The notes below the pieces were generated by a model. The model was not told the origin of the DNA and did no database searches. It was given only the letters and a program-made list of their open reading frames with translations. Shown piece after piece: positions 1 to 63,702 of a DNA stretch of 64,000 bases. A program made the position numbers and the translations under genes. Location of the stretch: positions 6,103-70,102 of the IMG/VR virus record IMGVR_UViG_3300047561_001492; one strand, written 5' to 3'. The stretch's first letter is position 1. Each line of letters begins with the position of its first letter. Source of the DNA: a virus (taxonomy: Duplodnaviria > Caudoviricetes).

Positions 1-1631
1 TTTTTTGATTGAGAACTATTTAATCTTTGAATATTATTTTGGTCAAATAAATTAAAATTAGCATAATCATTATTTCCAGAAGACTCTAACCACTCGCAAA
101 AAAATGGTCCATTTCCATTTTGATCGAGGCCATAGTTTCCTGTAACAAATATACTAATTGTTTTAAGATTTTTTACTAAATTAATAGTATTTATATCAAC
201 AGTGTTAAAAGAAAAAGGGCTATCAGTTGGTACTTCATATCCAGTTAAAAAGCCTGTAATAGTTGGAGAAACGCCTGTTCTAAAAAAAACTACTGTTTGA
301 TTAGGTGATAAAGTTTGGGTTAAAGTTAATGAGCTTTGACCCTGTTTACTATATATTGAAACATTTCCATATCCGGTGATAATTTCATCACTAAAGCCCG
401 TAGAACCAACTAATATTACATCGCCTTTATGACTAACAGATATTGATTTACCAAAAAAAGTATTATTTGATACAAAATCTTGATTACTATAAGATTCCAA
501 TAAAGTAAAATCATTTATATAAGTTGGAAAATAATTAGATCCAGTAATAAGCACGTTATAAAAATAATCTATTTGACCTGTTGCATATCGTAACTGTTTT
601 ATAGAACCGCTAAGTGCTTTATTTAAAATATTTCCGTCATTATCTAAAGTTGTAGAAAAAATATAACCAGTTCCGATGCCTGTTAAAAAATCTTCTCCAT
701 AAATAAAACCAGAAAGATTATTAGTTATTAAATTACCAGTAGAAAATAAACTTCCTGTAATAATTTCATTATTATGACCACTTATATTATAATATTTAAT
801 ATATATAACTTGGTCATCCGAAGATGCCATATTTAATCTATATTGATAATTTCTTTCATAAAGATTAGTTGAAAGATTTATAGCAAATTCATTTAAAATA
901 TTTTCAAAACTATCAAAATAAAATGGTGGAGAATTAATCTTAAAATTATATTCGGTTGTAATATTTCCAAAATTTGTATTTAATGTTAGTACGCCCAAAA
1001 TTCCAGTTAATGGCGGAATCCCAGATTGTACCGTATCAGCAGGTATATCAGAATTATAACGAAAAATTAAATTACCAGTTTTTAACCCAGAAATAAAATT
1101 TTTATCAAAATTATATAAACAATAGTAATTTTGACTTGTAAAATTTCCAGAAAATATTTCAAAAGATTTTTCTTTATTTTTTTCCTTATTACTAATTTGG
1201 GCGAAAATATCTTGACCTAATGTTATACCAGACAAAGGTTGAATAAAAGTATACTTTGGTGTATTTCCATATATATTTATATTTGTTGAAGCAACTGTAT
1301 CGTGGCTAGAAGCAAAAGTTATATATTTAAAATGATTACCAGAATTATATGAAAATAAACAAATTGGATTTTCATTAATAAAATAATTTAAATATCCAGA
1401 TCCTATATTACCAGATAGATATAAGGTTTCTCTTGGGTTATATGACCATACGTGCCTTTTATAAAAATCCAAAACTTTACCGCTATTAAAAGTAAATAGT
1501 TGTAAATATTCATTATCCCCACTAAAACCAAAATTAAAAGTACCAGTAGAATTATTAATAGATAAAGATAAGTCGTAAGAAAATTCATCCTGACTAGCTA
1601 TTGATCTATATACTGTACCAGTAATATCCAT
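1..1631 (-). CDS. Tail/baseplate-associated structural protein, runs off the window start (>543 aa)
   Basis: ATG at 1631 (MDITGTVYRSIASQDEFSYD...), 2 nt after the stop of 1634..4000. Frame was open in the stretches I read, down to base 3. Absent from the ORF track, presumably because it is truncated. Rich in 'SG/TG' motifs like the neighbouring tail genes. Confidence 0.6.
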   Translation of the reverse strand, partial: MDITGTVYRSIASQDEFSYDLSLSINNSTGTFNFGFSGDNEYLQLFTFNSGKVLDFYKRHVWSYNPRETLYLSGNIGSGYLNYFINENPICLFSYNSGNHFKYITFASSHDTVASTNINIYGNTPKYTFIQPLSGITLGQDIFAQISNKEKNKEKSFEIFSGNFTSQNYYCLYNFDKNFISGLKTGNLIFRYNSDIPADTVQSGIPPLTGILGVLTLNTNFGNITTEYNFKINSPPFYFDSFENILNEFAINLSTNLYERNYQYRLNMASSDDQVIYIKYYNISGHNNEIITGSLFSTGNLITNNLSGFIYGEDFLTGIGTGYIFSTTLDNDGNILNKALSGSIKQLRYATGQIDYFYNVLITGSNYFPTYINDFTLLESYSNQDFVSNNTFFGKSISVSHKGDVILVGSTGFSDEIITGYGNVSIYSKQGQSSLTLTQTLSPNQTVVFFRTGVSPTITGFLTGYEVPTDSPFSFNTVDINTINLVKNLKTISIFVTGNYGLDQNGNGPFFCEWLESSGNNDYANFNLFDQNNIQRLNSSQSK

Positions 1632-6005: not shown

Positions 6006-7589
6006 TTATATTTTACCCTCAAATGACCACGATCCATTAATCGTTACCGATTTAATTGAGTCGGTAATAGATATATCATATTCTTCTTCTAGAGATGTAT
6101 TTTGATCTACATATAAATTTTTAAGTCTATTAATTTCTTTGGAAACCTCATCTTTTACAAAAGTAATAGACGTATCTATTTGCCCAATTGCTGTTACACT
6201 GATTTTACATACGGATCTATTTGCACATAATAAATTTTGAACATTATGTGCCCTAGGTACCGCAGCAGCAGGATTGGCGACATATATTTCTAGCGAAGGA
6301 CTATATGAAACAGTTGAAGACATAGATAAGATTTGCGCATTAAAAGATCGAGTTTTATTACTAAATTTAGCTCTATAGTTAATTTCCGCGTTATATTCAT
6401 TAAATGATATAGACTCATTTATTGGCGTGGAATTTAATGGATTAGAATTAGTAGGAGCATCTTTATTATACTCAACAAGAACAAGACTATAAGGAAAAAA
6501 TTCTTTTGTATAGTAATTTAATACTAGTGGCCATTTAGTGCTATTATCTCCGTATCTTCCGAAAATTTTTGCAGAAATTTCTGATTCAGTAATGCATTTC
6601 AAAGGGTCTGTAATAGTTGTTACGGTATAATCATTTATAATATTAGGTAAATAATCATTATTATATGTAAAATTAAAATTTAAACTATTTTCATTCGGAG
6701 ACTCTTCCACTAATTGTGAAATAGCTTTATTATTTAAATCAACATTAAAAATATTGCGAGTCAATGTATTACATAAATTATAATAATTAATATTATTAAA
6801 CTCAGTTCGAATAGTATCTATGGTATTTCCGTTAAGCGTTCCATTAATATTACTAACAATTAATCCATCATTTATTCCAGAAGTTACGTCAACAGTATAT
6901 TGCAAAAAAGCTGACTTTGGACTTTCTATATTAACATTTTTTTTATAAACCCCTACGTGGCTATAATTTCCATTAAAACGATCCACTTCTTCTGATACTG
7001 TTTGTAGTAAAAAATCATTTGTATTATTTTTACAAAAAATAGGTAGAATTTTATTAAATTGACCAGTACGACTATTTACCCACTCTTTAGCATTTTCAAT
7101 CGCATTTTGATTTAATGTTTGAATTCCCTGGGCGGATAAACTATGTGTAAAAGTTAAAAAATCGCCATTTTCCTCTTGAAACTCAAAATTTTCTTCAGGA
7201 TTAATGACACCATAACTTTCTTGAAAAAGACCGGAATCATAAACGGTAAATTCAATATTAAATGGTAATAGACCATACCATTTATTTTCTGGGAAACTAA
7301 TTGAATTAACTACAGCAACATTTGCTTTATATATTTCAGTACCATTTTCTACAATTTTTAATTCTTTAAAATTATTTTTTAAATCATTAAGTAGTGATGA
7401 TTTATAATTATAGAGATTATTAAATTTGGAGTTTTTTCCAGTAATTTGGCCGTCTAATGTTAAATTAGTAATTTGATTTGTTTTATTACTAAAATCAATA
7501 TAATCCTGAGATATAGAAACAAAAGGTGTCGGAGCTATATCTTTAAAGATATCTTTACCATTGTAATAAATTATAAGATTATTATTCAT
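6006..7589 (-). CDS. Tail protein (527 aa)
   Basis: ORF track; second gene after tape measure; start overlaps the stop of 7589..9250. Confidence 0.55.
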   Translation of the reverse strand: MNNNLIIYYNGKDIFKDIAPTPFVSISQDYIDFSNKTNQITNLTLDGQITGKNSKFNNLYNYKSSLLNDLKNNFKELKIVENGTEIYKANVAVVNSISFPENKWYGLLPFNIEFTVYDSGLFQESYGVINPEENFEFQEENGDFLTFTHSLSAQGIQTLNQNAIENAKEWVNSRTGQFNKILPIFCKNNTNDFLLQTVSEEVDRFNGNYSHVGVYKKNVNIESPKSAFLQYTVDVTSGINDGLIVSNINGTLNGNTIDTIRTEFNNINYYNLCNTLTRNIFNVDLNNKAISQLVEESPNENSLNFNFTYNNDYLPNIINDYTVTTITDPLKCITESEISAKIFGRYGDNSTKWPLVLNYYTKEFFPYSLVLVEYNKDAPTNSNPLNSTPINESISFNEYNAEINYRAKFSNKTRSFNAQILSMSSTVSYSPSLEIYVANPAAAVPRAHNVQNLLCANRSVCKISVTAIGQIDTSITFVKDEVSKEINRLKNLYVDQNTSLEEEYDISITDSIKSVTINGSWSFEGKI

Positions 7590-46372: not shown

Positions 46373-47473
46373 TTAACTATGTACCATTTCATCTATATCA
46401 ATTCCACGGATTACAGCTTTTAACTCGTCCATAGAGGACAGACGTCTAGCTTCGCCCTCTAAATTTTGCTTTTGGGCTTCGGCTAGATGAATAATACTCT
46501 TACGACGTTCCTCGTCTTTCCATGCCTGAACTAAATTTAAAATACTTGCGTTCTCCTGCTTACGTTCTTGTATCTTTTTAGATCTATCGTCTACAAGGGA
46601 TTTATATAATTTATTTTGACGACCCCTACACTGGTTATACTCTGTTTGCAAGTTACTAATAGCTTCATTAAGTTGCATTTTAATATTACGACCCTCTTCC
46701 TCTTCACTTGCCTGTCTTAATGTTTGACGTAAGTCCTCTACTTGCTGAAGAATAGTGGACGCAGTAACAACTTCTGTACATAATACAATAAATTGATCCA
46801 ACTCTTCCTGAGTTAAGTCTTCTTTATCATATGTGTAACGTATAAAAGCATCTTCAAATAATTTTCTATCGTCATCTCGTCTATAAGTATTAATTTGATA
46901 ACAAAAACTAAAAGTATTTAAATATCTTTGTAGAGTATCTACCTGTTTTATTTGTATGGCTTTTAATTTTTCTAATTCCCATCCTAAATTTAAATATCTA
47001 TTAATTCTATAAAGGGTTTGATCAGACCTACGCGGAGGAAAATACTCTCCAATTGGATTATTTCGCTCCTTTGGGACATAAGTATTCATCTCTAAATATG
47101 TAGGGTCTTTCTTCTGAATTATTTCTACATATTTATTGACTTCACGTGCCTCTAGATTTAAATGAGTTAAATTATTATTTTTAAATAATATTTTAGCCAT
47201 ATCCAAATAGTGCTGATTTTTATAATTATTTTCTATAAATTCATGCTGTTCTTTGGTTAATTCGATACGGTCTCTTTGAAATACTGAACGATTTTTATAT
47301 TCAATATTATTATCTAATAGAAATTTTTTAACAATACGCCCCTCCTTACTACGACTATCTATATTTTCATTATTATAAGTATAAGCGGTAATTTCCGTAA
47401 GAGTAGCTTCTGGATTTTTTTTTAAAATTTCTTTTAATCTATTTTGTTGCTCTAATATTAAAATATCATCCAT
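46373..47473 (-). CDS. Hypothetical helical protein, possibly terminase small subunit-related (366 aa)
   Basis: HTH-like N-terminus, coiled-coil C-terminus, two genes upstream of TerL; function is inference. Confidence 0.5.
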   Translation of the reverse strand: MDDILILEQQNRLKEILKKNPEATLTEITAYTYNNENIDSRSKEGRIVKKFLLDNNIEYKNRSVFQRDRIELTKEQHEFIENNYKNQHYLDMAKILFKNNNLTHLNLEAREVNKYVEIIQKKDPTYLEMNTYVPKERNNPIGEYFPPRRSDQTLYRINRYLNLGWELEKLKAIQIKQVDTLQRYLNTFSFCYQINTYRRDDDRKLFEDAFIRYTYDKEDLTQEELDQFIVLCTEVVTASTILQQVEDLRQTLRQASEEEEGRNIKMQLNEAISNLQTEYNQCRGRQNKLYKSLVDDRSKKIQERKQENASILNLVQAWKDEERRKSIIHLAEAQKQNLEGEARRLSSMDELKAVIRGIDIDEMVHS

Positions 47474-48180
47474 TATAAAATCTCCTTTACGATTTGCCTT
47501 GCTTTTTGCAAAATTTTAGATTTAATTTTACTTATTTGTCTATATGCTGGACGACCCTCTTTTAGACTTAATTTATAACCCATCTTTTTAGCTACCTCCT
47601 GGTCATTCAAATTTTGTATAAACATATAATCATAGATTTTCCATTCAATGTTTGTTAAAGATTTTTTCATTAATTCGTTAAAAACAGGGATTATATTTTC
47701 TATATTAAAATCATTTTCAGTATTATGTAATACACTTTCCAATGTTGTTTCTGGATTATCATGATTCGGACTATGTATGCTTAAAGGAAATTTTACATCA
47801 TATGCAGATTTTTTATTTTTCTCCCATTTTTTGTAATCTTTACAACTATTATTTTGAGTCCCATATATAGAACAACCATAATCACCAGTATTAAATACAC
47901 ATTTTAAACACGGTCTTGAAAAATTTGAATAGTGATTTCTCAGCATATTAGTCATTTGGTGATTGATCACCTGACTTAACCATGGGCGTAATGGACGATT
48001 TTGGTCCCATTTCGACCATTTTTTATAAATATGAATCCTAATTCTTTGAGACACATCCTCAAAATCCATCCAAGCTATAGCAGTTAAATGCCAACGATGT
48101 TTTCTTTTTTTTATTTCTGAGTCTATAATATCAATAGAGTCTTCAAAAGAATATTTCGTAACTTTTTTTTTGCTGGGCAT
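47473..48180 (-). CDS. Sigma70/ECF-like sigma factor (235 aa)
   Basis: Region-2-like 'DFEDVSQRIRIHIYKKWSKWDQNRPLRPWLSQVINHQMTNMLR'; region-4-like 'LTNIEWKIYDYMFIQNLNDQEVAKKMG'. Confidence 0.65.
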   Translation of the reverse strand: MPSKKKVTKYSFEDSIDIIDSEIKKRKHRWHLTAIAWMDFEDVSQRIRIHIYKKWSKWDQNRPLRPWLSQVINHQMTNMLRNHYSNFSRPCLKCVFNTGDYGCSIYGTQNNSCKDYKKWEKNKKSAYDVKFPLSIHSPNHDNPETTLESVLHNTENDFNIENIIPVFNELMKKSLTNIEWKIYDYMFIQNLNDQEVAKKMGYKLSLKEGRPAYRQISKIKSKILQKARQIVKEIL

Positions 48181-55545: not shown

Positions 55546-55809
55546 ATGAAAGACATCAATACATCCTTCACCCTCAACGGAACAAGCTACAACATCGACG
55601 CGGAATTCTACGTCGATAGCGACATGAACTTTGAGATCGTCACACTCAACCTGTGGAATAACGATACGGACGCGGAAGTCTTGAGCTTCAAGGCTCCTTC
55701 GATCCTTCACCCTGTTCCTATGGAGTCCCTGTTCACTGACAAGGAACTGCAAAAGAAGGTCGATGACGTTATCCTCAACGAGATCGACCAAGGGATGGCG
55801 GGCTGGTAA
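55546..55809 (+). CDS. Hypothetical acidic early protein (87 aa)
   Basis: ORF track; leaderless promoter. Confidence 0.75.
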   Translation: MKDINTSFTLNGTSYNIDAEFYVDSDMNFEIVTLNLWNNDTDAEVLSFKAPSILHPVPMESLFTDKELQKKVDDVILNEIDQGMAGW

Positions 55810-55824
55810 GGCCCTCATCCTATA

Positions 55825-55839
55825 GCAGGAAGCGTGCCA
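55825..55839 (-). promoter_or_regulatory. Sigma54-type -24/-12 site, antisense to 55546..55809
   Basis: Minus strand TGGCACG-CTTC-CTGC; overlaps the terminator hairpin. Confidence 0.55.
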
Positions 55840-55867
55840 AGTCTTGCACTTGGTGCGCTTTTTGTTT
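55830..55867 (+). terminator. Intrinsic terminator
   Basis: AAGCGTGCCAAGT-CTTGC-ACTTGGTGCGCTT plus T tract (13-bp stem with G.U pairs). Confidence 0.75.
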
Positions 55868-55936: not shown

Positions 55937-56013
55937 GTAACCCCTTAAATATCAAGCACTTACGCGGCCGCGCCCCACCGCGCGACGTAACCTGTTGAAA
56001 ATCAACGTGTTAT
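55937..56013. repeat. 77-bp double-palindrome element, copy A
   Basis: Palindromic arm + GC core + palindromic arm (GTAACCCCTTAAATATCAAGCACTTACG...CGTAACCTGTTGAAAATCAACGTGTTAT). Confidence 0.9.
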
Positions 56014-56025
56014 GGAATATGCTAG

Positions 56026-56040
56026 GCAAGCGGCGTGCCA
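56026..56040 (-). promoter_or_regulatory. Sigma54-type promoter facing copy A
   Basis: TGGCACG-CCGC-TTGC, a perfect consensus; 12 nt from the element end. Confidence 0.7.
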
Positions 56041-56124
56041 AGTCGCGTGTCAAGCGAAAAAAATAAAAAAATAATTTTTAAAAAAATCCCTTGCGTTTTT
56101 GTAGGTCTGTGGTATAGTAGAAGC

Positions 56125-56298
56125 ATGATTAAGAACACAACCATCACACCACTAATGAAAGAAATCGCTGCGGAGGTCGCGCTTGAAACGGCGCATCTCG
56201 AAGCGGCTCTCGCCCTCATGGGCGGTAGCACGGAAGAATCGGAAAATGCTTGGAGAGATTCCGAAGTTGAGCGCATCGAAAGATTCCGCGACTTCTAA
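56125..56298 (+). CDS. Hypothetical early protein (57 aa; start 56125, not 56035)
   Basis: MIKNTTITPLMKEIAAEVALE...; ATG 6 nt after TATAGT. Confidence 0.75.
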   Translation: MIKNTTITPLMKEIAAEVALETAHLEAALALMGGSTEESENAWRDSEVERIERFRDF

Positions 56299-56342
56299 AA
56301 TAATCCCTTGACCTTAACACTAAAACAAACCACAATAACACC

Positions 56343-56558
56343 ATGACAAAAAAACACCTCGAAGCCTTTGCAAAAATCTTGGGCAAACGTCTCGCTGAAA
56401 AACAAAATGCTCCCATTGCGGAATATGAAGTTGTTGAAGTCCTCGCGTTGGACTTTGCGAAATACTTTGCCGAACAGAATCCGCGTTTCGATGAGGATCG
56501 CTTTCTGGAAGCGGTTTTCTCTGGAACCCCTAACATCCCTGTTGGATCATATAAATAA
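56343..56558 (+). CDS. Hypothetical early protein (71 aa)
   Basis: 'MTKKHLEAFAKIL...NPRFDEDRFLEA', a pattern common in small phage proteins. Confidence 0.75.
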   Translation: MTKKHLEAFAKILGKRLAEKQNAPIAEYEVVEVLALDFAKYFAEQNPRFDEDRFLEAVFSGTPNIPVGSYK

Positions 56559-56559
56559 A

Positions 56560-56742
56560 ATGATCACTCCCAACATCCAAAAAGCCCTTGAATCAAATGG
56601 TGTGCGTTTCTTCGCAAAAGATTTTCTCATGGAAGGCATGAGGAAAGATTGCGTTGACGCTGTGCATGACGCGCACCTTGTCTATAAACTTTTGCACGAA
56701 CGCATGGAAAAAATCCTTGCACACGATGAAAAAAACATCTAA
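56560..56742 (+). CDS. Hypothetical early protein (60 aa; start 56560)
   Basis: ATG 1 nt after the upstream stop; 'KDCVDAVHDA'. Confidence 0.7.
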   Translation: MITPNIQKALESNGVRFFAKDFLMEGMRKDCVDAVHDAHLVYKLLHERMEKILAHDEKNI

Positions 56743-56754
56743 CCTAAACACTCA

Positions 56755-57003
56755 ATGAATAAATACACATACACCACGGCGGTTGCTCTGATGAGCAGCC
56801 TTCTCACCCTCCTCGTAACCAGCGCGGCGTTCTTCGTGTTCATCGTCCTGCCCTTTAATCGGGCGGCGGTCGAAGGCGGACACGCTTACTGGCGCGTGAC
56901 CAACCCCGCGACAGGCTCAACGTCTTTCACTTGGGCAAAGCCTAACGCGAACATCTTCGACGAGATCGAGCAGCCCTTGGTCGCACCCTTGGCCGCGAAG
57001 TAG
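56755..57003 (+). CDS. Membrane-anchored early protein (82 aa)
   Basis: N-terminal hydrophobic helix; followed by a terminator. Confidence 0.7.
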   Translation: MNKYTYTTAVALMSSLLTLLVTSAAFFVFIVLPFNRAAVEGGHAYWRVTNPATGSTSFTWAKPNANIFDEIEQPLVAPLAAK

Positions 57004-57020
57004 TCGCGCCACACTCTCAC

Positions 57021-57055
57021 GCTTGGCACGCCCCGCGCGTGTCAAGCTTTTTTTT
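57021..57055 (+). terminator. Intrinsic terminator upstream of copy B
   Basis: GCTTGGCACGC-CCCGC-GCGTGTCAAGC-T8. Confidence 0.85.
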
Positions 57056-57073
57056 GCAAAAATCTTTTGTGTT

Positions 57074-57150
57074 GTAAGTCGTTAAATATCAAGCACTTAC
57101 GCCGCCACGCCCCGCCGCGCGGCGTAAGTCGTTGAAAATGAGGGGCTTAG
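57074..57150. repeat. 77-bp element, copy B
   Basis: GTAAGTCGTTAAATATCAAGCACTTACG-CCGCCACGCCCCGCCGCGCGG-CGTAAGTCGTTGAAAATGAGGGGCTTAG. Confidence 0.9.
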
Positions 57151-57162
57151 GCAATCTGCCAC

Positions 57163-57177
57163 GCAGATGCCATGCCA
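57163..57177 (-). promoter_or_regulatory. Sigma54-type promoter facing copy B
   Basis: TGGCATG-GCAT-CTGC; 12 nt from the element end. Confidence 0.6.
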
Positions 57178-57261
57178 ACTCGCGTGTCAAGCACAAAAAA
57201 AATATTTTTTTAATCGCAAAAAATCTCTTGCATTTTTGCGCGGCTGTGGTAGAGTGTATGC

Positions 57262-57444
57262 ATGACAAAGAAATTCTACACCAGTGGAGAGATCATCGAG
57301 TTCGCCACGAAAAACAAGGCGGCTTGCACGTTCGCATCGCTTGCCACGCGCACGTTCACCTACACCAACAAGGGCGGGCTTTTCTGTCTAGTCCAGTTTG
57401 ATCGGGTTGAACCGCTGGTCTGGAAAAAGCGCGTGAGAAAATAA
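57262..57444 (+). CDS. Hypothetical early protein (60 aa)
   Basis: ORF track; leaderless promoter. Confidence 0.7.
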   Translation: MTKKFYTSGEIIEFATKNKAACTFASLATRTFTYTNKGGLFCLVQFDRVEPLVWKKRVRK

Positions 57445-57492
57445 ATAAAAAAATCCCTTGACTTTTACTGCATCTCTGCTATACTTTTAACA

Positions 57493-57687
57493 ATGAAAAC
57501 ATACATCATCACCTTCACCAAAACTGGGGAGCTTCCTGTCATCATCAACGTCGAAGCGGCAACGCTTCGCACGGCAATCAACAAATCTGTTCGCCGCATC
57601 GAACAGATGAAAAAAAATCTGGACAAGAAAGGCTACGACTACGGCCACTTGTGCGGATTGGCGATTCAGTCCACATTCACCATCTAA
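57493..57687 (+). CDS. Hypothetical early protein (64 aa)
   Basis: ORF track; TTGACT-16-TATACT promoter. Confidence 0.7.
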   Translation: MKTYIITFTKTGELPVIINVEAATLRTAINKSVRRIEQMKKNLDKKGYDYGHLCGLAIQSTFTI

Positions 57688-57691
57688 TAAC

Positions 57692-57877
57692 ATGAAAAAG
57701 AAAACACCACAAAAAAGCCAAATCTGGAAAGTTGGCACACGTTGCTTCCGCATCGTTCGCATCGAAGGCAACCAAGCCGTTGTCCGTCATCACGACATCT
57801 TCGGAAAATTCTTCCTCGACGACTTGCGCCCCGCAAGCGCGGAAGACATCTCCGCATACTTCAAGAAAAACTCTTGA
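57692..57877 (+). CDS. Small beta-barrel (SH3/KOW-like) early protein (61 aa)
   Basis: 'WKVGTRCFRIVRIEGNQAVV'; its TGA is part of the next -35 box TTGACC. Confidence 0.6.
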   Translation: MKKKTPQKSQIWKVGTRCFRIVRIEGNQAVVRHHDIFGKFFLDDLRPASAEDISAYFKKNS

Positions 57878-57912
57878 CCTTTCAACCCTAACACGCTAAC
57901 ATCATCACCACT

Positions 57913-58149
57913 ATGAACAACACACAAGACGGAATCATCAAAGCCCTCGAAACGCTCGTCCTGCACAGCAACGCGCTTAAGGATCACAAAGAAAACCAAA
58001 CCCTCATCGGCAAAACTCTTGAGTTTCACCAGAAGCATCTGGAAGTTCACGAGCAAAAGCTCGACCTCCTATGCCACAGCATCACCACGCTCGCGCATGA
58101 GTTGCTGAAGCTCAAAGACACTAACAAAATCACCTTCGGAGTCAACTAA
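57913..58149 (+). CDS. Coiled-coil early protein (78 aa)
   Basis: Heptad pattern rich in His/Leu. Confidence 0.7.
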   Translation: MNNTQDGIIKALETLVLHSNALKDHKENQTLIGKTLEFHQKHLEVHEQKLDLLCHSITTLAHELLKLKDTNKITFGVN

Positions 58150-58150
58150 C

Positions 58151-58303
58151 ATGAGCAGAATTATAATGACCATAGACACGCGCCCCTTCGCGCGCGAGAT
58201 CGAACGTAGCGTTCGCAAGACCGCTTGCCGTCCATCATTCGCCCTGCGCGTGAAGAACGCCTACACGCGCAAGGCAAAACACAAACACGCACAAGACTAC
58301 TAA
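58151..58303 (+). CDS. Basic 50-aa protein with ArfA-like C-terminus
   Basis: MSRIIMTIDTRPFAREIERSVRKTACRPSFALRVKNAYTRKAKHKHAQDY; read by eye, below track cutoff. Confidence 0.6.
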   Translation: MSRIIMTIDTRPFAREIERSVRKTACRPSFALRVKNAYTRKAKHKHAQDY

Positions 58304-58365
58304 TGATCCCCATCATAGCCTGTGCGCTTTTCGTTTTCTATACTATCACACGAACCAAAATATAA
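58303..58365 (+). CDS. Possible 20-aa hydrophobic peptide
   Basis: MIPIIACALFVFYTITRTKI; TAATG coupling to the upstream stop. Confidence 0.4.
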   Translation: MIPIIACALFVFYTITRTKI

Positions 58366-58383
58366 TTTATAAAAATATAATCT

Positions 58384-58551
58384 ATGAACATAATCCAACG
58401 CACAACGGAAGTTATACTCAACGTAGTTGCCCTCTACACTCCCAAGCGCAAGCCCTCGTTGCTCGCGCAGAATATAACTTGGTTTAACTCTGCGGGTTGG
58501 GTCACGCGGCTTCACGCGAACGGAGATCTTGACTACTATCTTGTGAAGTAA
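58384..58551 (+). CDS. Hypothetical early protein (55 aa)
   Basis: MNIIQRTTEVILNVVALY...DYYLVK; its TAA lies in the left arm of copy C. Confidence 0.6.
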   Translation: MNIIQRTTEVILNVVALYTPKRKPSLLAQNITWFNSAGWVTRLHANGDLDYYLVK

Positions 58552-58624
58552 AGCGTTGAATATCAAGCACTTACGCCGCCGCGCCCCGCCGCTCGGCGTA
58601 AGTCGTTGAAAATCAGCACTTTAC
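58548..58624. repeat. 77-bp element, copy C
   Basis: GTAAAGCGTTGAATATCAAGCACTTACG-CCGCCGCGCCCCGCCGCTCGG-CGTAAGTCGTTGAAAATCAGCACTTTAC. Confidence 0.9.
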
Positions 58625-58636
58625 GCAACATGCTAC

Positions 58637-58651
58637 GCAGGTGCCGTGCCA
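58637..58651 (-). promoter_or_regulatory. Sigma54-type promoter facing copy C
   Basis: TGGCACG-GCAC-CTGC; 12 nt from the element end. Confidence 0.65.
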
Positions 58652-58753
58652 ACTTTGGATTCAAACGCGCGTTTGAAAAATCATCAACAAAAATACTTTC
58701 TAAAAATCGAAAAAAAAGCGTGCGTCTCGCGTGTGGCGTGCTATACTTCTCTC

Positions 58754-59005
58754 ATGGTTAATACAGACAACACCGCAAACACACAGCAACTCGACAACGT
58801 GATGCACACCGCGCGTGTCGCGCTCATCATGCGCATACGCCAAGGAATAAAAAATCGGCATGGGTTCCCCGCCTACTCTCGCAAGGGAATCCGTGAAGAC
58901 CTCCGCGCCTATCGCGTTCTCTCGAACGTGCTCGAAGTCAACGCGACCTTCTACACCTTCGACGAGTCGCAACTCCACAAGGTGAAAAAAGCCCTTGCCA
59001 AGTAA
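58754..59005 (+). CDS. Hypothetical early protein (83 aa; start 58754)
   Basis: MVNTDNTANTQQLDNVMH...; ATG 6 nt after TATACT. Confidence 0.7.
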   Translation: MVNTDNTANTQQLDNVMHTARVALIMRIRQGIKNRHGFPAYSRKGIREDLRAYRVLSNVLEVNATFYTFDESQLHKVKKALAK

Positions 59006-59030
59006 GGCGCAATCTGAAAAAATTCACACG

Positions 59031-59705
59031 ATGAAACTACTCGCAACAAACACCAAACTAGAAAAAAGCGTTGGCTACGGCTGGCGCACACTCGGACTCT
59101 CGCTCTCTCCCGCTGGCAAGAGTGGCAAACAATTCTGCCCGCATCGCTCGGCGGGATGCGAAGCCGCTTGCCTTGACACTTCAGGCATGGGCGTTTTTCA
59201 AATGGTGCAGGACGCACGGCTCGCCAAATCGCGTTACTTCATCGACAAGCGCGACGATTTTCTCGCACAGCTAAACCGCGAAATGCACAACGCGGAAAAA
59301 CTTTCCACGCGCACGAAAATCCCCGTGGCCGTTCGTCTGAACGTGCTTGCGGATCTTCCGTGGCACAAGCTAGTTGATATGGAAAAATTTTCCAACGTGC
59401 AGTTTTATGATTACACGCCGAACCTCGACCGCATGATGGAATTTTTGCGCGGCGAGTTGCCGAAAAATTATCATCTTACCTTCTCGCGCAAGGAGGACAA
59501 TCAACACAAGGTTCATGCCGTTCTCGCCGCTGGCGGCAACGTGGCCGTGGCGTTCAATCGTTTGCCAGAAACCTATCTCGGCTTGCCAGTCATCGACGGC
59601 GATAAAAGCGACTTGCGTTTTCTCGACGCGCAAAACGTGATCGTCGGACTCAAAGCCAAGGGCAAAGGCAAACACGATACCTCTGGCTTCGTGGTTCAAA
59701 TATAA
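59031..59705 (+). CDS. Gp88-like protein (mycobacteriophage gene 88 family) with Cx6Cx3C motif (224 aa; start 59031)
   Basis: 'TNTKLEKS...LSLSPA...CPHRSAGCEAACL...VRLNVLADLPW...QFYDYT...YHLTFS...GGNVAV...DGDKSDLRFLD...GLKAKG'. Confidence 0.75.
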   Translation: MKLLATNTKLEKSVGYGWRTLGLSLSPAGKSGKQFCPHRSAGCEAACLDTSGMGVFQMVQDARLAKSRYFIDKRDDFLAQLNREMHNAEKLSTRTKIPVAVRLNVLADLPWHKLVDMEKFSNVQFYDYTPNLDRMMEFLRGELPKNYHLTFSRKEDNQHKVHAVLAAGGNVAVAFNRLPETYLGLPVIDGDKSDLRFLDAQNVIVGLKAKGKGKHDTSGFVVQI

Positions 59706-59718
59706 ATAGAATGATGCC

Positions 59719-59796
59719 GTGACCATAATTCCAATTATACTCTGCGCCGTTCTCGTCTGCTTCATAATCTCCAACAACTCCAACCCTAAAAAATAA
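59719..59796 (+). CDS. Possible 25-aa hydrophobic peptide (GTG start)
   Basis: (M)TIIPIILCAVLVCFIISNNSNPKK; resembles 58303..58365. Confidence 0.35.
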   Translation: MTIIPIILCAVLVCFIISNNSNPKK

Positions 59797-59797
59797 T

Positions 59798-59950
59798 ATG
59801 ACACACTACGCAAAAAAAATCCTGTTCCGACTAGCGCAAACTTGTAAACGCCGTGCGGACTATGCTTGCCGCCGCAACAACATAGGGCTTGCAAAAAAAT
59901 ATCTTTTCGCATGGGAAAAATTGCTTGACACGCGCGACAAACTTCGGTGA
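59798..59950 (+). CDS. Basic hypothetical protein (50 aa)
   Basis: MTHYAKKILFRLAQTCKRRADYAC...LLDTRDKLR; stop is 1 nt before copy D. Confidence 0.55.
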   Translation: MTHYAKKILFRLAQTCKRRADYACRRNNIGLAKKYLFAWEKLLDTRDKLR

Positions 59951-59951
59951 C

Positions 59952-60028
59952 ATAAAGCGTTGAAAATCAACGACTTACGGCGGCGCGCCCCGCCGCGCGG
60001 CGTAAGTGCTTGAAAATCAACAGCTTAT
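59952..60028. repeat. 77-bp element, copy D
   Basis: ATAAAGCGTTGAAAATCAACGACTTACG-GCGGCGCGCCCCGCCGCGCGG-CGTAAGTGCTTGAAAATCAACAGCTTAT. Confidence 0.9.
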
Positions 60029-60040
60029 AAAACATGCCTC

Positions 60041-60055
60041 GCAGGTGCCATGCCA
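60041..60055 (-). promoter_or_regulatory. Sigma54-type promoter facing copy D
   Basis: TGGCATG-GCAC-CTGC; 12 nt from the element end. Confidence 0.6.
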
Positions 60056-60129
60056 AGATTGTTGTCAAGCGAAAAATAAAAATAAAAAAAATCCCTTGCA
60101 CCTATCACAATTTTTGCTATTCTTCTCCT

Positions 60130-60264
60130 ATGCAAGCGAACTCCCTAATTATGGACGACTTCACGGCAAACATCCAAAGCGACGAGTTCGCGGCGGAATA
60201 CGAGGCATGGATCACCGAGCAGGAGCAGAACTACTGGCGCGAGATCGAGGCGCGGGGAAATTAA
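60130..60264 (+). CDS. Acidic 44-aa early protein (start 60130)
   Basis: MQANSLIMDDFTANIQSDEFAAEYEAWITEQEQNYWREIEARGN; leaderless promoter. Confidence 0.65.
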   Translation: MQANSLIMDDFTANIQSDEFAAEYEAWITEQEQNYWREIEARGN

Positions 60265-60267
60265 TTT

Positions 60268-60462
60268 ATGACAAACAACACCACGAAATGCCCCAAGTGC
60301 GGGGGCAACGCAACACGCACCTACGAGCCACCCTACCAAGAATACGCTGGAGCCAGCGTGCAGGGCGGCTACTACTACGTCGAGTGCTCGTGCGGTCACG
60401 AGGGCCACGAAAAGGCCGACCTCTCCGACTACGACTACATGGAGAACACGCGCGGCTGGTAG
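60268..60462 (+). CDS. Zinc-ribbon early protein (64 aa)
   Basis: 'KCPKCGG...YVECSCGH'. Confidence 0.7.
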   Translation: MTNNTTKCPKCGGNATRTYEPPYQEYAGASVQGGYYYVECSCGHEGHEKADLSDYDYMENTRGW

Positions 60463-60477
60463 CGCACACACTCAAAC

Positions 60478-60512
60478 GCTTGGCACGCCATATGCGTGTC
60501 AAGCTTTTTTTT
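60478..60512 (+). terminator. Intrinsic terminator upstream of copy E
   Basis: GCTTGGCACGC-CATAT-GCGTGTCAAGC-T8; same arms as 57021-57055. Confidence 0.85.
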
Positions 60513-60530
60513 GCAAAAATCTTATGTTAC

Positions 60531-60644
60531 GTAAAGCGTTGGAAATCAACAACTTACGCCGCCACGCCCCGCCGACCCGCGTAAGTCCTTGAATATCAGC
60601 ACTTTGCAAAAAATTGGTGCAAGTCGTTGAAAATCAACATTTTA
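60531..60644. repeat. 77-bp element, copy E (60531-60607), plus a third arm (60619-60644)
   Basis: GTAAAGCGTTGGAAATCAACAACTTACG-core-CGTAAGTCCTTGAATATCAGCACTTTGC; extra GCAAGTCGTTGAAAATCAACATTTAT. Confidence 0.9.
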
Positions 60645-60664
60645 TAGAAAATGGGGGTATATTA

Positions 60665-60753
60665 CTATTTGCTATTTGTCTATTTCCTATTTAGCAATTT
60701 CCTATTTCACTATTTCATATTTCACTATTTAGCAATTTGATAGTTCGCTATTT
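60665..60753. repeat. Tandem CTATTT-type microrepeat array (~12 units, period 7-8 nt)
   Basis: ctatttg ctatttgt ctatttc ctatttag caatttc ctatttca ctatttca tatttca ctatttag caatttga ... ctattt. Confidence 0.9.
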
Positions 60754-60878
60754 TAACAAAAATTTTATATTTGTCGAAATATTGGGGAACTTTCGACAGG
60801 TTTTCCCAACGTGTCGATAGCTTCGACATGAAAAAAGTCCTTGCTATTTCTACTATTTGGGCTATACTAGATGAACAT

Positions 60879-60952
60879 GGGGGTGAAGCATTAAAGTGAT
60901 GCAACGGACTTTTAATCCGTAGAAGAGGGCGCGTTACCCTCCATCCCCACCA
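60879..60952 (+). tRNA. trnK: tRNA-Lys(UUU), non-canonical T-loop and position 8
   Basis: GGGGGTG/CATCCCC acceptor, GCAT/ATGC D-stem, ACGGA/TCCGT stem with CT-TTT-AA loop, GAGGG/CCCTC T-stem, discriminator A, encoded CCA; own promoter TTGCTA-16-TATACT. Confidence 0.9.
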
Positions 60953-61018
60953 AAACTTTCTGAAAAATAATCAAAAAAACCCATTGACTAGACCATCAAA
61001 AAGACCTATTCTATATAA

Positions 61019-61282
61019 ATGAAAGCACTACTAAAGAAGATCAAACTGGCAATCGCAGACTCCAAGTTCGGACAACTCTCCAATCCTGTGTATAGGTTGA
61101 AGTATCGTCCTTACACGGACGAGGGAAACAAGGAGGTTTATGACTACCTCGTTTCCAGACCCTTCGACGGGTGGGTGAATGGATTCACCGCCTATGCTTT
61201 CGGCAAAGGCGTTCGTAGGTTCCGCTTCGACGAGATCGTTGATCGTGAAGTAGTTCAGATCTTTGGAAAATCTGTGGCGTAA
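61019..61282 (+). CDS. WYL-like domain protein (87 aa)
   Basis: 'RLKYRPY...FTAYAFGKGVRRFRFDEI' resembles the WYL 'R.FR.DRI' end; TAA sits in a GTGGCG/CGCCAC hairpin loop. Confidence 0.55.
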   Translation: MKALLKKIKLAIADSKFGQLSNPVYRLKYRPYTDEGNKEVYDYLVSRPFDGWVNGFTAYAFGKGVRRFRFDEIVDREVVQIFGKSVA

Positions 61283-61297
61283 CGCCACGCAATATAA

Positions 61298-61922
61298 TCT
61301 GCTCGACAATCAATATCGGAAACAAAAGAAGCAAAGTTAAACGGATCTTTGCGGTGGTCGCGTAAGCGAAAATCAAACATCCGCCGAAGCAGATAACAAT
61401 TTTTAGTTCTTTTACATTTTAGATTTTGCTGTGGTCATTGAGGGGTTTGCAACTGCGGATAGACTGAGAGGTTTACCAAAGGCAAATAGCGACCTGAGCC
61501 ACAGCACAATTTTTTCCGAACGTTTCGATGCGCGTCTTCATGGCGCGGGAACAAACGCAGAGGAAAAACCTCTCCCAAGCTCTGGCGGATACATCTCCGT
61601 TCAACTTGTGAGCTAATTGCCGAAAGGCGATTTGATGTCGGTGCCGCCAGAAGGCACGGAGTCAACGGCAGGGAGTTCTGGCCTCCCTGTCACTACTTTT
61701 ATAATTTAGAGGTTTGCATGGCGCATTGATCATGCAAAGCAAATCAGAAAGTTGTGTTTTCTGAGCCTCTATCTTTTGCATAGAAAATGCGCAATAGTTC
61801 AAAGCAAACTTTAACTATTCTGCAAAAACTATGCGCAATACTTTTGGAGCAACCACAAACCCTCTGGTATTAGGCGGCTGGAAGAAATTGGAAAGTTCTC
61901 TGGCGTAAGTCCTGCTCCGAAA
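61298..61922 (+). ncRNA. Candidate large structured RNA (or cluster of structured RNAs), family unknown
   Basis: No credible ORF; ~6 consecutive stem-closed domains, GNRA loops, complementary loop pairs (see findings). Strand inferred from neighbours and GNRA orientation. Confidence 0.65.
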
Positions 61923-61939
61923 TCTTTTAAAATAAAATT

Positions 61940-62161
61940 ATGAATGACATACAAAAATACTGCCTAATCGCTTTGGGCCTAATCGTCTTCGTCTCTCTTA
62001 TCGGAGGCGGCGGCGGCAAACGAACGGACGGAGTCTATGAGAGTGCCATGAGTAAACTTGACTCTGGTCGTCCTCTTAATGATAGGGAACAGCAAAGAAT
62101 TTCTGATATAGTTAACTGGTGTTCTGCACACAATAGGCCGATTAGAGAGTGCAATCACTAA
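61940..62161 (+). CDS. Membrane-anchored/secreted small protein (73 aa)
   Basis: Hydrophobic N-terminus, Gly5 linker, C-terminal C-x2-H...C; TAA lies in the left arm of copy F. Confidence 0.7.
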   Translation: MNDIQKYCLIALGLIVFVSLIGGGGGKRTDGVYESAMSKLDSGRPLNDREQQRISDIVNWCSAHNRPIRECNH

Positions 62162-62234
62162 AGCCTTATAAATCAACCACTTACGGCAGCGCGCCCGCCC
62201 CGCGCGCGCAACCCCTTGATATTCAAGCACTTAC
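62158..62234. repeat. 77-bp element, copy F
   Basis: CTAAAGCCTTATAAATCAACCACTTACG-GCAGCGCGCCCGCCCCGCGCG-CGCAACCCCTTGATATTCAAGCACTTAC. Confidence 0.85.
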
Positions 62235-62246
62235 GCAAAACGTGGA

Positions 62247-62261
62247 GCAGGAATCGTGCCA
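62247..62261 (-). promoter_or_regulatory. Sigma54-type promoter facing copy F
   Basis: TGGCACG-ATTC-CTGC; 12 nt from the element end. Confidence 0.65.
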
Positions 62262-62344
62262 ACCTTTCGGAACGCCCAAAAATAAAAAAAGATTTTTATC
62301 AAAGAATACCTTGCATAGCTTGGGGGTTCTGATATTCTTCCTAC

Positions 62345-62842
62345 ATGACAAGAACGGCAGACATCATCATCAGCACATACGGAAACGGCATTGCCGTTGG
62401 ACTCAAGGGAACACGCGAGCAGATCGAACGTGAGTTCAATCGCTTCTTCAACTGGGGAGCAGCAGCAGCAAACGTGAGTTTCATGCGTTCCAACGCTGAT
62501 TCCGAAATGCAGCATGGTGAACTCGGAGATTCATACCTTCACGAAATCGGACAAAACTTTTCATACTTTCTCTCCACGCATGAGGCTATGATTAAAGCCA
62601 TTGCCGCCGAAACAATCACGCGCTGGCAGGACTCACCTGTAAGCGAGCAATACAAGGCCAAGCCGCGCACTAACAAGAAGGCGCAAGGTAACAAGTTCAT
62701 GGCCGAAGCTCTCGCCGCAGCAACCGCAGAATACGAAGCCATGCCACGCGAAAACTTTATGCTGTTCGGTAAAACGCCCACGCACATTTACCAGCAACTC
62801 GACGGCGGTGCGCCGTCATGGATCAAGGAGACTGAAGACTAA
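62345..62842 (+). CDS. Hypothetical early protein (165 aa)
   Basis: ORF track; TTGCAT-16-TATTCT leaderless promoter. Confidence 0.8.
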   Translation: MTRTADIIISTYGNGIAVGLKGTREQIEREFNRFFNWGAAAANVSFMRSNADSEMQHGELGDSYLHEIGQNFSYFLSTHEAMIKAIAAETITRWQDSPVSEQYKAKPRTNKKAQGNKFMAEALAAATAEYEAMPRENFMLFGKTPTHIYQQLDGGAPSWIKETED

Positions 62843-63390: not shown

Positions 63391-63576
63391 ATGAAACCAC
63401 GCAAATATAAAATAAAAAAGGTGTCTTTTACTATGATGAGGAACGGCCCTACAAAAATTGGGATAAAAATATATTCACGCCGTAAAAAGAAAATTAAAAA
63501 AGCGCAAACAGCATGGCCCCTGCCTTGGACACCATTACCCCATAAAAAAATCCTACTTGCTTACGATATAGCCTAA
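63391..63576 (+). CDS. Basic hypothetical protein (61 aa)
   Basis: ORF track; TAA lies in the left arm of copy G. Confidence 0.5.
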   Translation: MKPRKYKIKKVSFTMMRNGPTKIGIKIYSRRKKKIKKAQTAWPLPWTPLPHKKILLAYDIA

Positions 63577-63649
63577 ACCATTCAAAATCAAGGACTTAAG
63601 GCGGCGCGCCCCGCCGCGCGGCCTAAGTTGTTGATATTCAAGCACTTGT
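63573..63649. repeat. 77-bp element, copy G
   Basis: CTAAACCATTCAAAATCAAGGACTTAAG-GCGGCGCGCCCCGCCGCGCGG-CCTAAGTTGTTGATATTCAAGCACTTGT; no sigma54 site on its right. Confidence 0.85.
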
Positions 63650-63702
63650 AAATAATAAAAATACTTGTTGACCCCAAATTCAAATGCGGCTATTCTTACA
63701 GG

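Follow-up and report, generated by a model that had tools for sequence, protein, structure and literature searches.

Among described systems, the closest to the one considered here are the promoter-early stem-loops (PeSLs) of the T4-type phages RB49 and phi1, which combine the upstream gene's stop codon with a GC-rich stem-loop, an AT-rich tract and a strong sigma70-like early promoter; they lie beside ORFans and bring about shuffling (Arbiol et al. 2010, PMC2839356). In Escherichia coli, many sites of RpoN (sigma54) are antisense to genes or have no gene nearby and are bound by inactive holoenzyme (PMC4591121), and at "repressive" RpoN promoters the parked holoenzyme interferes with sigma70 polymerase at promoters close by (Shimada et al. 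2021, PMC8743547). A mapped sigma54-like promoter in Pseudomonas phage YuA is mentioned in the passage of bioRxiv 10.1101/2023.10.13.562163 that cites Ceyssens et al. 2008; no other phage was described as exploiting sigma54 in the literature searched. Here we describe a repeated linker, a 77-bp double palindrome followed by a sigma54-type box, that separates the early-gene cassettes of a tailed phage (Duplodnaviria; Caudoviricetes; IMG/VR record IMGVR_UViG_3300047561_001492). The window, i.e. the whole stretch of 64,000 nucleotides analysed (positions 6,103 to 70,102 of that record), is the right-hand 64 kb of one 70,102-bp viral contig with a completeness of 47% (CheckV).

The whole linker consists of a stop codon, the double palindrome with its GC core, the box, an A tract, a sigma70-type promoter and a leaderless ATG. 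It resembles the PeSLs in being a repeated intergenic cassette in a plastic, ORFan-rich region, in having all four PeSL parts and in its shuffled order between relatives. It differs from them in having a fixed 77-bp double palindrome as its stem-loop and in preceding leaderless genes that lack a Shine-Dalgarno sequence; its bearer is not a T4-type myovirus but a large tailed phage of another kind that has a tape measure protein. The linker would work like a PeSL, but outside that phage group. A further difference is the backward-facing sigma54-type box, since none has been described for PeSLs; the box would be a fixed fourth module of a PeSL-like linker. The initial annotation knew of no phage unit combining these parts. 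The fusion of a PeSL-like linker with a sigma54-type box was indeed not found in the literature searched, but the linker itself has its counterpart in the PeSLs, and YuA, as far as the citing passage goes, is a precedent for sigma54 in a phage.

The motif TGGCAYG-N4-YTGC has six exact matches in the 64 kb, every one on the minus strand (55825, 56026, 57163, 58637, 60041 and 62247); shuffled sequences gave an expectation of 0.06 matches and none of 100 shuffles reached six. All six carry the full TGC at -14 to -12. Five lie downstream of copies A, B, C, D and F of the element, and in these the plus-strand word TGCCAA begins at an exact distance of 77 nt from the first base of the CTTACG core, so that the box starts 12 nt beyond the 77-bp element. 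The 12-nt distance from the right end of these copies, noticed in the initial annotation, is therefore exact in all five. The corresponding minus-strand 17-mers (-27 to -11 in sigma54 numbering) are box A, 56025..56041, TTGGCACGCCGCTTGCC (core start 55959, offset 77); box B, 57162..57178, TTGGCATGGCATCTGCG; box C, 58636..58652, TTGGCACGGCACCTGCG; box D, 60040..60056, TTGGCATGGCACCTGCG; and box F, 62246..62262, TTGGCACGATTCCTGCT (core start 62180, offset 77). The sixth match (55824..55840, minus strand) has no element; read on the plus strand, it supplies the 5' arm of a terminator hairpin after the ORF (open reading frame) 55546-55809, an arrangement that recurs in the related loci L004 and L016.

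The elements lie on the plus strand, at 55938..56014 (A), 57075..57151 (B), 58549..58625 (C), 59953..60029 (D) and 62159..62235 (F). Their parts follow in the order TAA stop, box1 (TTGAWWWTCAA), CTTACG, a C-rich GC core, CGTAAG and box2; in copy A, box1 is TTAAATATCAA, the hexamer after the core is CGTAAC and box2 is TTGAAAATCAA, and in copy C the left arm holds the TAA stop of ORF 58384-58551. In every boxed copy of the window an A tract comes next, followed by a sigma70-type promoter with 6 nt between its end and the ATG, confirming the back-to-back layout. Promoter A (56091..56127) reads TTGCGT, N16, TGgTATAGT, 6 nt and a leaderless ATG at 56125. The others, likewise on the plus strand, are promoter B (57228..57264; TTGCAT and TAGAGT, ATG at 57262), promoter C (58720..58756; a weak -35 and TGcTATACT, ATG at 58754), promoter D (60096..60132; TTGCAC and TATTCT, ATG at 60130) and promoter F (62311..62347; TTGCAT and TATTCT, ATG at 62345).

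Removal of near-duplicates left 247 element readings, 76 of them with TGCCAA. The offset of 77 from the core start was found in all 76 of these non-redundant boxed units, which come from contigs of freshwater relatives, so the 12-nt spacing is kept in related genomes; among the non-redundant readings no one-mismatch variant of TGCCAA occurred at that site. The fixed spacing implies that the box belongs integrally to a unit about 125 bp long. The GC core is asymmetric, and the box stands on its CCCC side 75 times and on its GGGG side once. Counted from the first base of the core, index positions 59-66 and 70-74 vary freely; TTGGCA and TG are constant in the 76 diverged copies. A -35/-10 pair follows 72 of the 76 boxed units, 61 of these pairs having TGn, with the A tract and the GC-rich palindromic core before it. 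The box is present in about 60% of units.

In the complete genomes G001 and G003 all boxes are linked to elements, lie in the early island and are antisense to early genes, and no box was found outside that island. The phages carry two sigma70-family sigma factor genes per genome, one at 47473-48180 (minus strand) of the window and the second at a locus seen in the relatives. Because the box does not occur elsewhere in the genome, it is not a general promoter of these two factors, and this candidate was rejected. A minus-strand sigma70 promoter with TTGGCA or TTGACA as -35 was rejected as well, since no -10 was found at 16-18 nt.

The minus-strand profile of the boxes is S-TTGGCA-Y(C 72%)-R(G 88%)-N4-[C 59/T 29/A 11]-T(100)-G(100)-[C 58/A 42]-[G 47/A 39]. 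Across 135 E. coli sites, deviations are rare at GG and TGC (Bonocora et al. 2015, PMC4591121). Of these five positions, the most invariant ones of sigma54 sites with E. coli as the reference, four (GG and TG) are constant, at canonical spacing, in 76 of the 76 phage copies. The RpoN -24/-12 consensus and the GG-N10-GC signature assigned initially are thus borne out as far as GG-N10-G, which is absolute in the 76 copies, but not for the final C at -12, which is kept in 58% and replaced by A in 42%. Key positions were compared by hand count with the 50 intergenic sites in Table 1 of PMC4591121. Position -21 is a pyrimidine in 90% of the E. coli sites and in 100% of the boxes (C 72%, T 28%), position -20 is a purine in 88% and 100% (G 88%, A 12%), respectively, and G is nearly absent at -15 in both sets. 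To judge from these counts, the degenerate positions -21 and -20 vary as they do in real sigma54 sites. TGA in place of TGC is also known among bound E. coli sites, including the confirmed hydN promoter (...GTGAA) (PMC4591121). The likeness to RpoN sites such as hydN, pspA and the intragenic or antisense sites of E. coli thus comprises TTGGCAYR-N4-NTG, the canonical spacing, the -21/-20 degeneracy and the TGA variants; the boxes differ from them by the frequent A at -12 and G at -11 and by their location in a virus, and their binding of sigma54 is putative. Both -12 alleles, C and A, occur with many spacers and in both subfamilies of the element described below, indicating that both are maintained.

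The -12 C stands at element index 67, and the rule that transcription starts 12 nt past it predicts +1 at index 55, the base with which the element ends. A second rule, 19 bp from the motif centre (PMC4591121), gives the identical position, in agreement with a start at the element edge as first predicted. The predicted minus-strand starts of the boxed copies are 56014 (A), 57151 (B), 58625 (C), 60029 (D) and 62235 (F).

Sigma54 is the sole bacterial sigma factor that binds DNA stably without firing: its holoenzyme forms a stable closed complex and does not fire on its own, an ATP-driven activator being needed. We tentatively propose, with a confidence a little short of even, that the box is a docking site for the host sigma54 RNA polymerase holoenzyme within a PeSL-like early-gene cassette linker. 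By default the polymerase would be parked there; from the element edge it may produce an antisense transcript. What the sequence itself shows is the box, held in invariant register with the palindromes, with a fixed polarity and confined to the early island. By analogy with bacterial sites, a holoenzyme would be parked with the palindromes on one side and the A tract on the other and would face the upstream cassette, whose read-through transcription it would meet head-on and hinder. For the next early promoter it would be a bulky complex bound upstream, approximately in helical register. More speculatively, a host enhancer-binding protein on the double palindrome might fire the box; the RNA, beginning with the final base of the element, would then cross the palindromes in antisense and enter the upstream gene at its 3' end.

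The zero-indel register between box and element, combined with a variable distance to the -35, is as expected of a promoter fixed to a transcribed or enhancer sequence. Counted in the same direction were the polarity of 75 versus 1, the island restriction and the 75% of boxed linkers that have no upstream intrinsic terminator (25% have one). The distance between box and -35 varies from 44 to 96 nt and falls into classes of 44-46, 54-55, 60-62 (a minority), 73-77, 84-85 and 96 nt; these mostly ~10-bp steps may reflect phased A tracts or a face-of-helix requirement. The repressive RpoN sites of E. coli overlap sigma70 promoters, a difference from the present box, which lies 44-96 nt upstream of the -35 and faces away. 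No U tract stands behind the GC hairpin of the element on the plus strand. In a check of complementarity between boxes and terminators, the unboxed sample comprised only 8 units, too few for comparison.

The downstream enhancer would be FlrC-like. In class III flagellar promoters of Vibrio cholerae, FlrC enhancers lie downstream of the sigma54 start, according to the passage of PMC6504787 that cites Correa and Klose 2005; the likeness, as far as that passage describes the enhancers, is that activator sites lie where the double palindrome would lie. The distances here are very short, the palindrome centres being at about +14 and +64 from the predicted start, and no activator is known for TTGAWWWTCAA, which are both differences from the FlrC system. 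The double palindrome is a possible enhancer by position only.

Several observations weigh against docking of sigma54. The -12 C, one of the most invariant positions, is A in 42% of the copies and T in none, compared with A in 6% of the 50 E. coli sites (C 86%, T 8%), and -11 is G in 47% as opposed to 8%. The T at -27 is invariant (30% in E. coli), and the "free" spacer is limited to S-Y-W-Y, both exceeding what sigma54 requires. Repeats of TGCCAAG, TGTCAAG and TGTCATA stand at 12-nt steps and also within terminator stems, which hints at a wider word family with another reader. The box has no downstream gene. The three complete relatives have neither a Sigma54_DBD gene nor a true enhancer-binding protein gene. 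In an RNAalifold analysis of 70 non-redundant minus-strand sequences, from the predicted start through the element, the consensus energy was -1.97 kcal/mol and the putative RNA had 0 compensatory pairs; this absence of covariation carries no weight against an unstructured antisense transcript. Actinobacteria, Cyanobacteria, LD12 and small genomes are among the abundant low-GC hosts of fresh water, the habitat of this phage. Sigma54 is absent from Actinobacteria, Cyanobacteria and most genomes below 1.5 Mb (PMC3162934), and the LD12 strain LSUCC0530 has no annotated RpoN (PMC12113158).

A phage-encoded sigma54 or activator was rejected: besides the lack of Sigma54_DBD, the weak PF00158 hits correspond to a 312-aa RuvB-like AAA+ protein without GAFTGA. 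Searches for the host gave no direct lead. The element pattern matched only four contigs of 1-1.6 kb, binned in metagenome-assembled genomes of three different phyla; the large terminase (TerL), the virion protein and GP88 gave distant hits only (Bacillus/Clostridium phages, cyanophages and pelagiphages); no WhiB was found in the phages, the Atlas look-up returned "Viruses" only, and no cultured relative was found by DNA.

The palindromes were examined for the pairing expected of a folded molecule. Their inner halves are invariant and their outer halves degrade without compensation. The S positions that flank the core (index -3,-2 and 34,35) covary as mirror images, either CG..GC or GC..CG, and are complementary in only 7-17% of copies; these positions therefore do not pair, and the inner inverted repeat always contains a 2x2 mismatch. 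These flanking positions (N2) mark two element subfamilies and do not behave as base pairs. A structured RNA or a single-stranded DNA hairpin was rejected, since the variable arm positions break pairs or covary as mirror images, and the small hairpin RNA of the initial annotation receives no support from covariation in the RNAalifold result. From its pattern of variation, the palindrome fits double-stranded protein sites better than folded RNA. In nearly all copies box1 and box2 (index -9..3 and 41..53; 55950-55962 and 56000-56012 in copy A) fit the IHF consensus WATCAANNNNTTR on the plus strand, a match that could be due to chance because of the palindrome. No HU/IHF gene was found in the phages, and a phage HU/IHF was rejected.

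Double-stranded protein sites would also suit a different reader of the box. It may be the asymmetric site of another DNA-binding protein, a phage early protein or a host regulator, forming a polar nucleoprotein unit with the palindrome binders and resembling a sigma54 site by coincidence; we consider this explanation doubtful, though it is the main alternative. Such a unit might separate the cassettes as a stoperator-like barrier or insulator, or might serve the next early promoter as an upstream architectural element. The constraints that sigma54 does not need (T at -27, the S-Y-W-Y spacer, C or A but never T at -12) would then be expected, as would the rigid register with two palindromes that have invariant inner halves and no hairpin covariation. 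The related words TGCCAAG, TGTCAAG and [G/T]CARR at 12-nt steps and the ~10-bp steps between box and -35 point the same way. A described parallel is provided by the stoperators of Cluster A mycobacteriophages (L5, GGTGGMTGTCAAG; Bxb1, GTTACGWDTCAAG), which are 13-bp asymmetric intergenic sites in one orientation that end in TGTCAAG or TCAAG (PMC3029335). As with the present boxes, many copies of a short site stand in one orientation to transcription, and the letters TGTCAAG or TCAAG are common to both. The difference lies in the setting: the ORFs of the island include no repressor-like or helix-turn-helix family, the boxes are locked to palindromes and occur only in the early island, not over the whole genome as stoperators do, and there is no sign of lysogeny. 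Another protein is further opposed by the lack of any candidate DNA-binding gene among the island ORFs (Pfam, PHROGs) and of an HU/IHF gene, by the low probability of TTGGCAYR-N5-TG arising at the right spacing by chance, estimated at a few in 10,000 per conserved motif, and by the -21/-20 degeneracy, which mimics that of real sigma54 sites.

A box with no reader of its own might persist as a passenger of recombination or gene conversion between linkers, in a shuffling of the PeSL type. The islands of G000, G001 and G003 have their cassettes in different orders, the breakpoints falling at linkers, PeSLs are known to mediate such shuffling (PMC2839356), and the N2 positions mark subfamilies of the element; yet this origin is very unlikely, because conservation is position-specific, with TTGGCA and TG fixed in 76 diverged copies while their neighbours vary, and both -12 alleles are found with both N2 alleles and with many spacers. 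Homogenisation alone is thus insufficient. There is a still smaller chance that the conserved letters act on the plus strand, as an upstream promoter part (box2 TTGAAA, N17, a TATGCT-like hexamer) or as an RNA signal in read-through transcripts. Some copies do give TATACT or TATGCT 17 nt past box2, and a plus-strand terminator hairpin has the box at 55825 as its 5' arm, but the -10-like hexamer is not conserved (A at the second position in 76%, T at the sixth in 45%), the invariant CA and TGCCAA lie downstream of it, and in boxed units the box has no conserved pairing partner. The slightest probability of all is given to box transcripts that prime replication as R-loops at multiple origins, or to boxes that only titrate host sigma54 as a decoy. 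Five to six boxes per genome could bind several holoenzymes, and an iteron-like repeat block adjoins element E; against this, element E itself has no box, titration of a sigma factor by five sites would require a highly replicated genome, and no sequence link joins the boxes to replication. Nothing in the sequence speaks for the R-loop primers or multiple origins that had been suggested.

The occurrence of sigma54 boxes in other phages also speaks for sigma54 docking at the linkers. IMG/VR was scanned for the perfect consensus TTGGCACG-N4-TTGCAT. The hits were mostly chance singletons, together with stretches that contained two or three exact hits and further boxes. In L262 (2000-4110), four boxes each lie about 40 nt ahead of a Shine-Dalgarno sequence and ATG; L243:12290-12710 and L306:6920-7500 are two-way clusters of 8-10 boxes within 400-600 bp, on contigs unrelated to the phage described here. 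Phages of sigma54-bearing hosts use this signal. The boxes of YuA, as far as the available passage describes them, are like those of L262 sense promoters of genes, and the common ground with the present phage is a sigma54-type promoter in a phage; the present boxes are antisense and fused to repeated palindromic linkers. A search for element-less boxes in other lineages (CRTGCCAAS-N5-TGTCAAG) was discarded, its 105 hits being about the number expected by chance and the real ones belonging only to known relatives.

The island that carries the linkers stands out from the rest of the genome. From position 1 to about 55,000 the window has 27-38% GC and minus-strand structural genes, among them those for a 2205-aa tape measure protein, the large terminase and a virion protein; beyond about 55,300, up to where the contig ends, the GC content is 45-50% and the ORFs are small and on the plus strand, each behind a sigma70-type promoter whose end is 6 nt from the ATG. 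The complete relatives G001 and G003 (166-178 kb, both with direct terminal repeats) share a GC-rich island of about 16 kb (at 16-32 kb in each) within a genome of 31% GC. The GC contrast of the window is thus not an assembly chimera, and this explanation was ruled out. Except for GP88, the ORFs of the island, in the window as well as in G001, whose island was also examined, have no family in Pfam or PHROGs and are thus ORFans. Cultured phages have only distant relatives of its TerL. Matches to the element core came from 21 IMG/VR loci, 78 metagenome loci and the four tiny contigs from metagenome-assembled genomes. The runs containing the stretch were DNA runs only, of freshwater, lake and river origin, with no RNA run among them. 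Late genes mostly have no Shine-Dalgarno sequence, and GTGTAA is often present 20-30 nt upstream of them.

Two copies of the element in the window have no box. Element G (63574..63650, plus strand) has a promoter directly after it. Element E (60532..60608, plus strand) is followed at 60610-60760 by a third half-box, GCAAGTCGTTGAAAATCAAC, and iteron-like repeats, at least five of the CTATTT type at 15-nt steps. This block is also found behind box-less elements in relatives, which makes it a candidate replication origin. Further along, a tRNA at 60879-60949 (plus strand) scored 47.4 bits with Rfam and was not called by ARAGORN; its CCA is encoded, its anticodon is UUU and its T loop is odd, and a promoter of its own stands in front. 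Between ORF 61019-61282 and ORF 61940-62161, the interval 61298-61922 has no ORF over about 625 nt and no Rfam match at E<=1.

Short repeated words were also observed around the boxes. In linker A, a second word, TGTCAAG, stands 12 nt after TGCCAAG and, with the A tract, occupies 56048..56086 (plus strand) upstream of promoter A, an arrangement (class i) found in 23/76 units. GCAAG, CCAAG and TCAAG repeat at exact 12-nt steps on the plus strand (56026-56056 and related units), reading CTTGCC, CTTGGC and CTTGAC on the minus strand, and CGTG[C/T]CAAG also makes terminator stems at 57013-57055 and 60470-60515. Between box and promoter the relatives have more repeated words (L003:10140-10200, L006), including direct repeats of TGTCATAG at 12-nt steps and an 18-bp palindrome, TTCAAACGNNCGTTTGAA, whose reverse complement also forms part of upstream terminators.

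A broader speculation, which we consider unlikely, is that this phage family wires the host sigma54 polymerase into most of its early linkers, with the palindrome as a close-range downstream enhancer and the parked polymerase as an insulator, until an activator by which the host senses stress or nutrients gives rise to antisense RNAs that switch off the early genes. Early expression would in that case be subject to host physiology. The box arrays in other uncultured phages suggest that this could be a general, undescribed viral use of sigma54. Should another protein read the boxes, they would represent a new polar operator system at cassette boundaries. If sigma54 reads them, a parked host polymerase would serve as a programmable insulator or switch between mobile early-gene cassettes, and infection would be tied to host signalling through enhancer-binding proteins.

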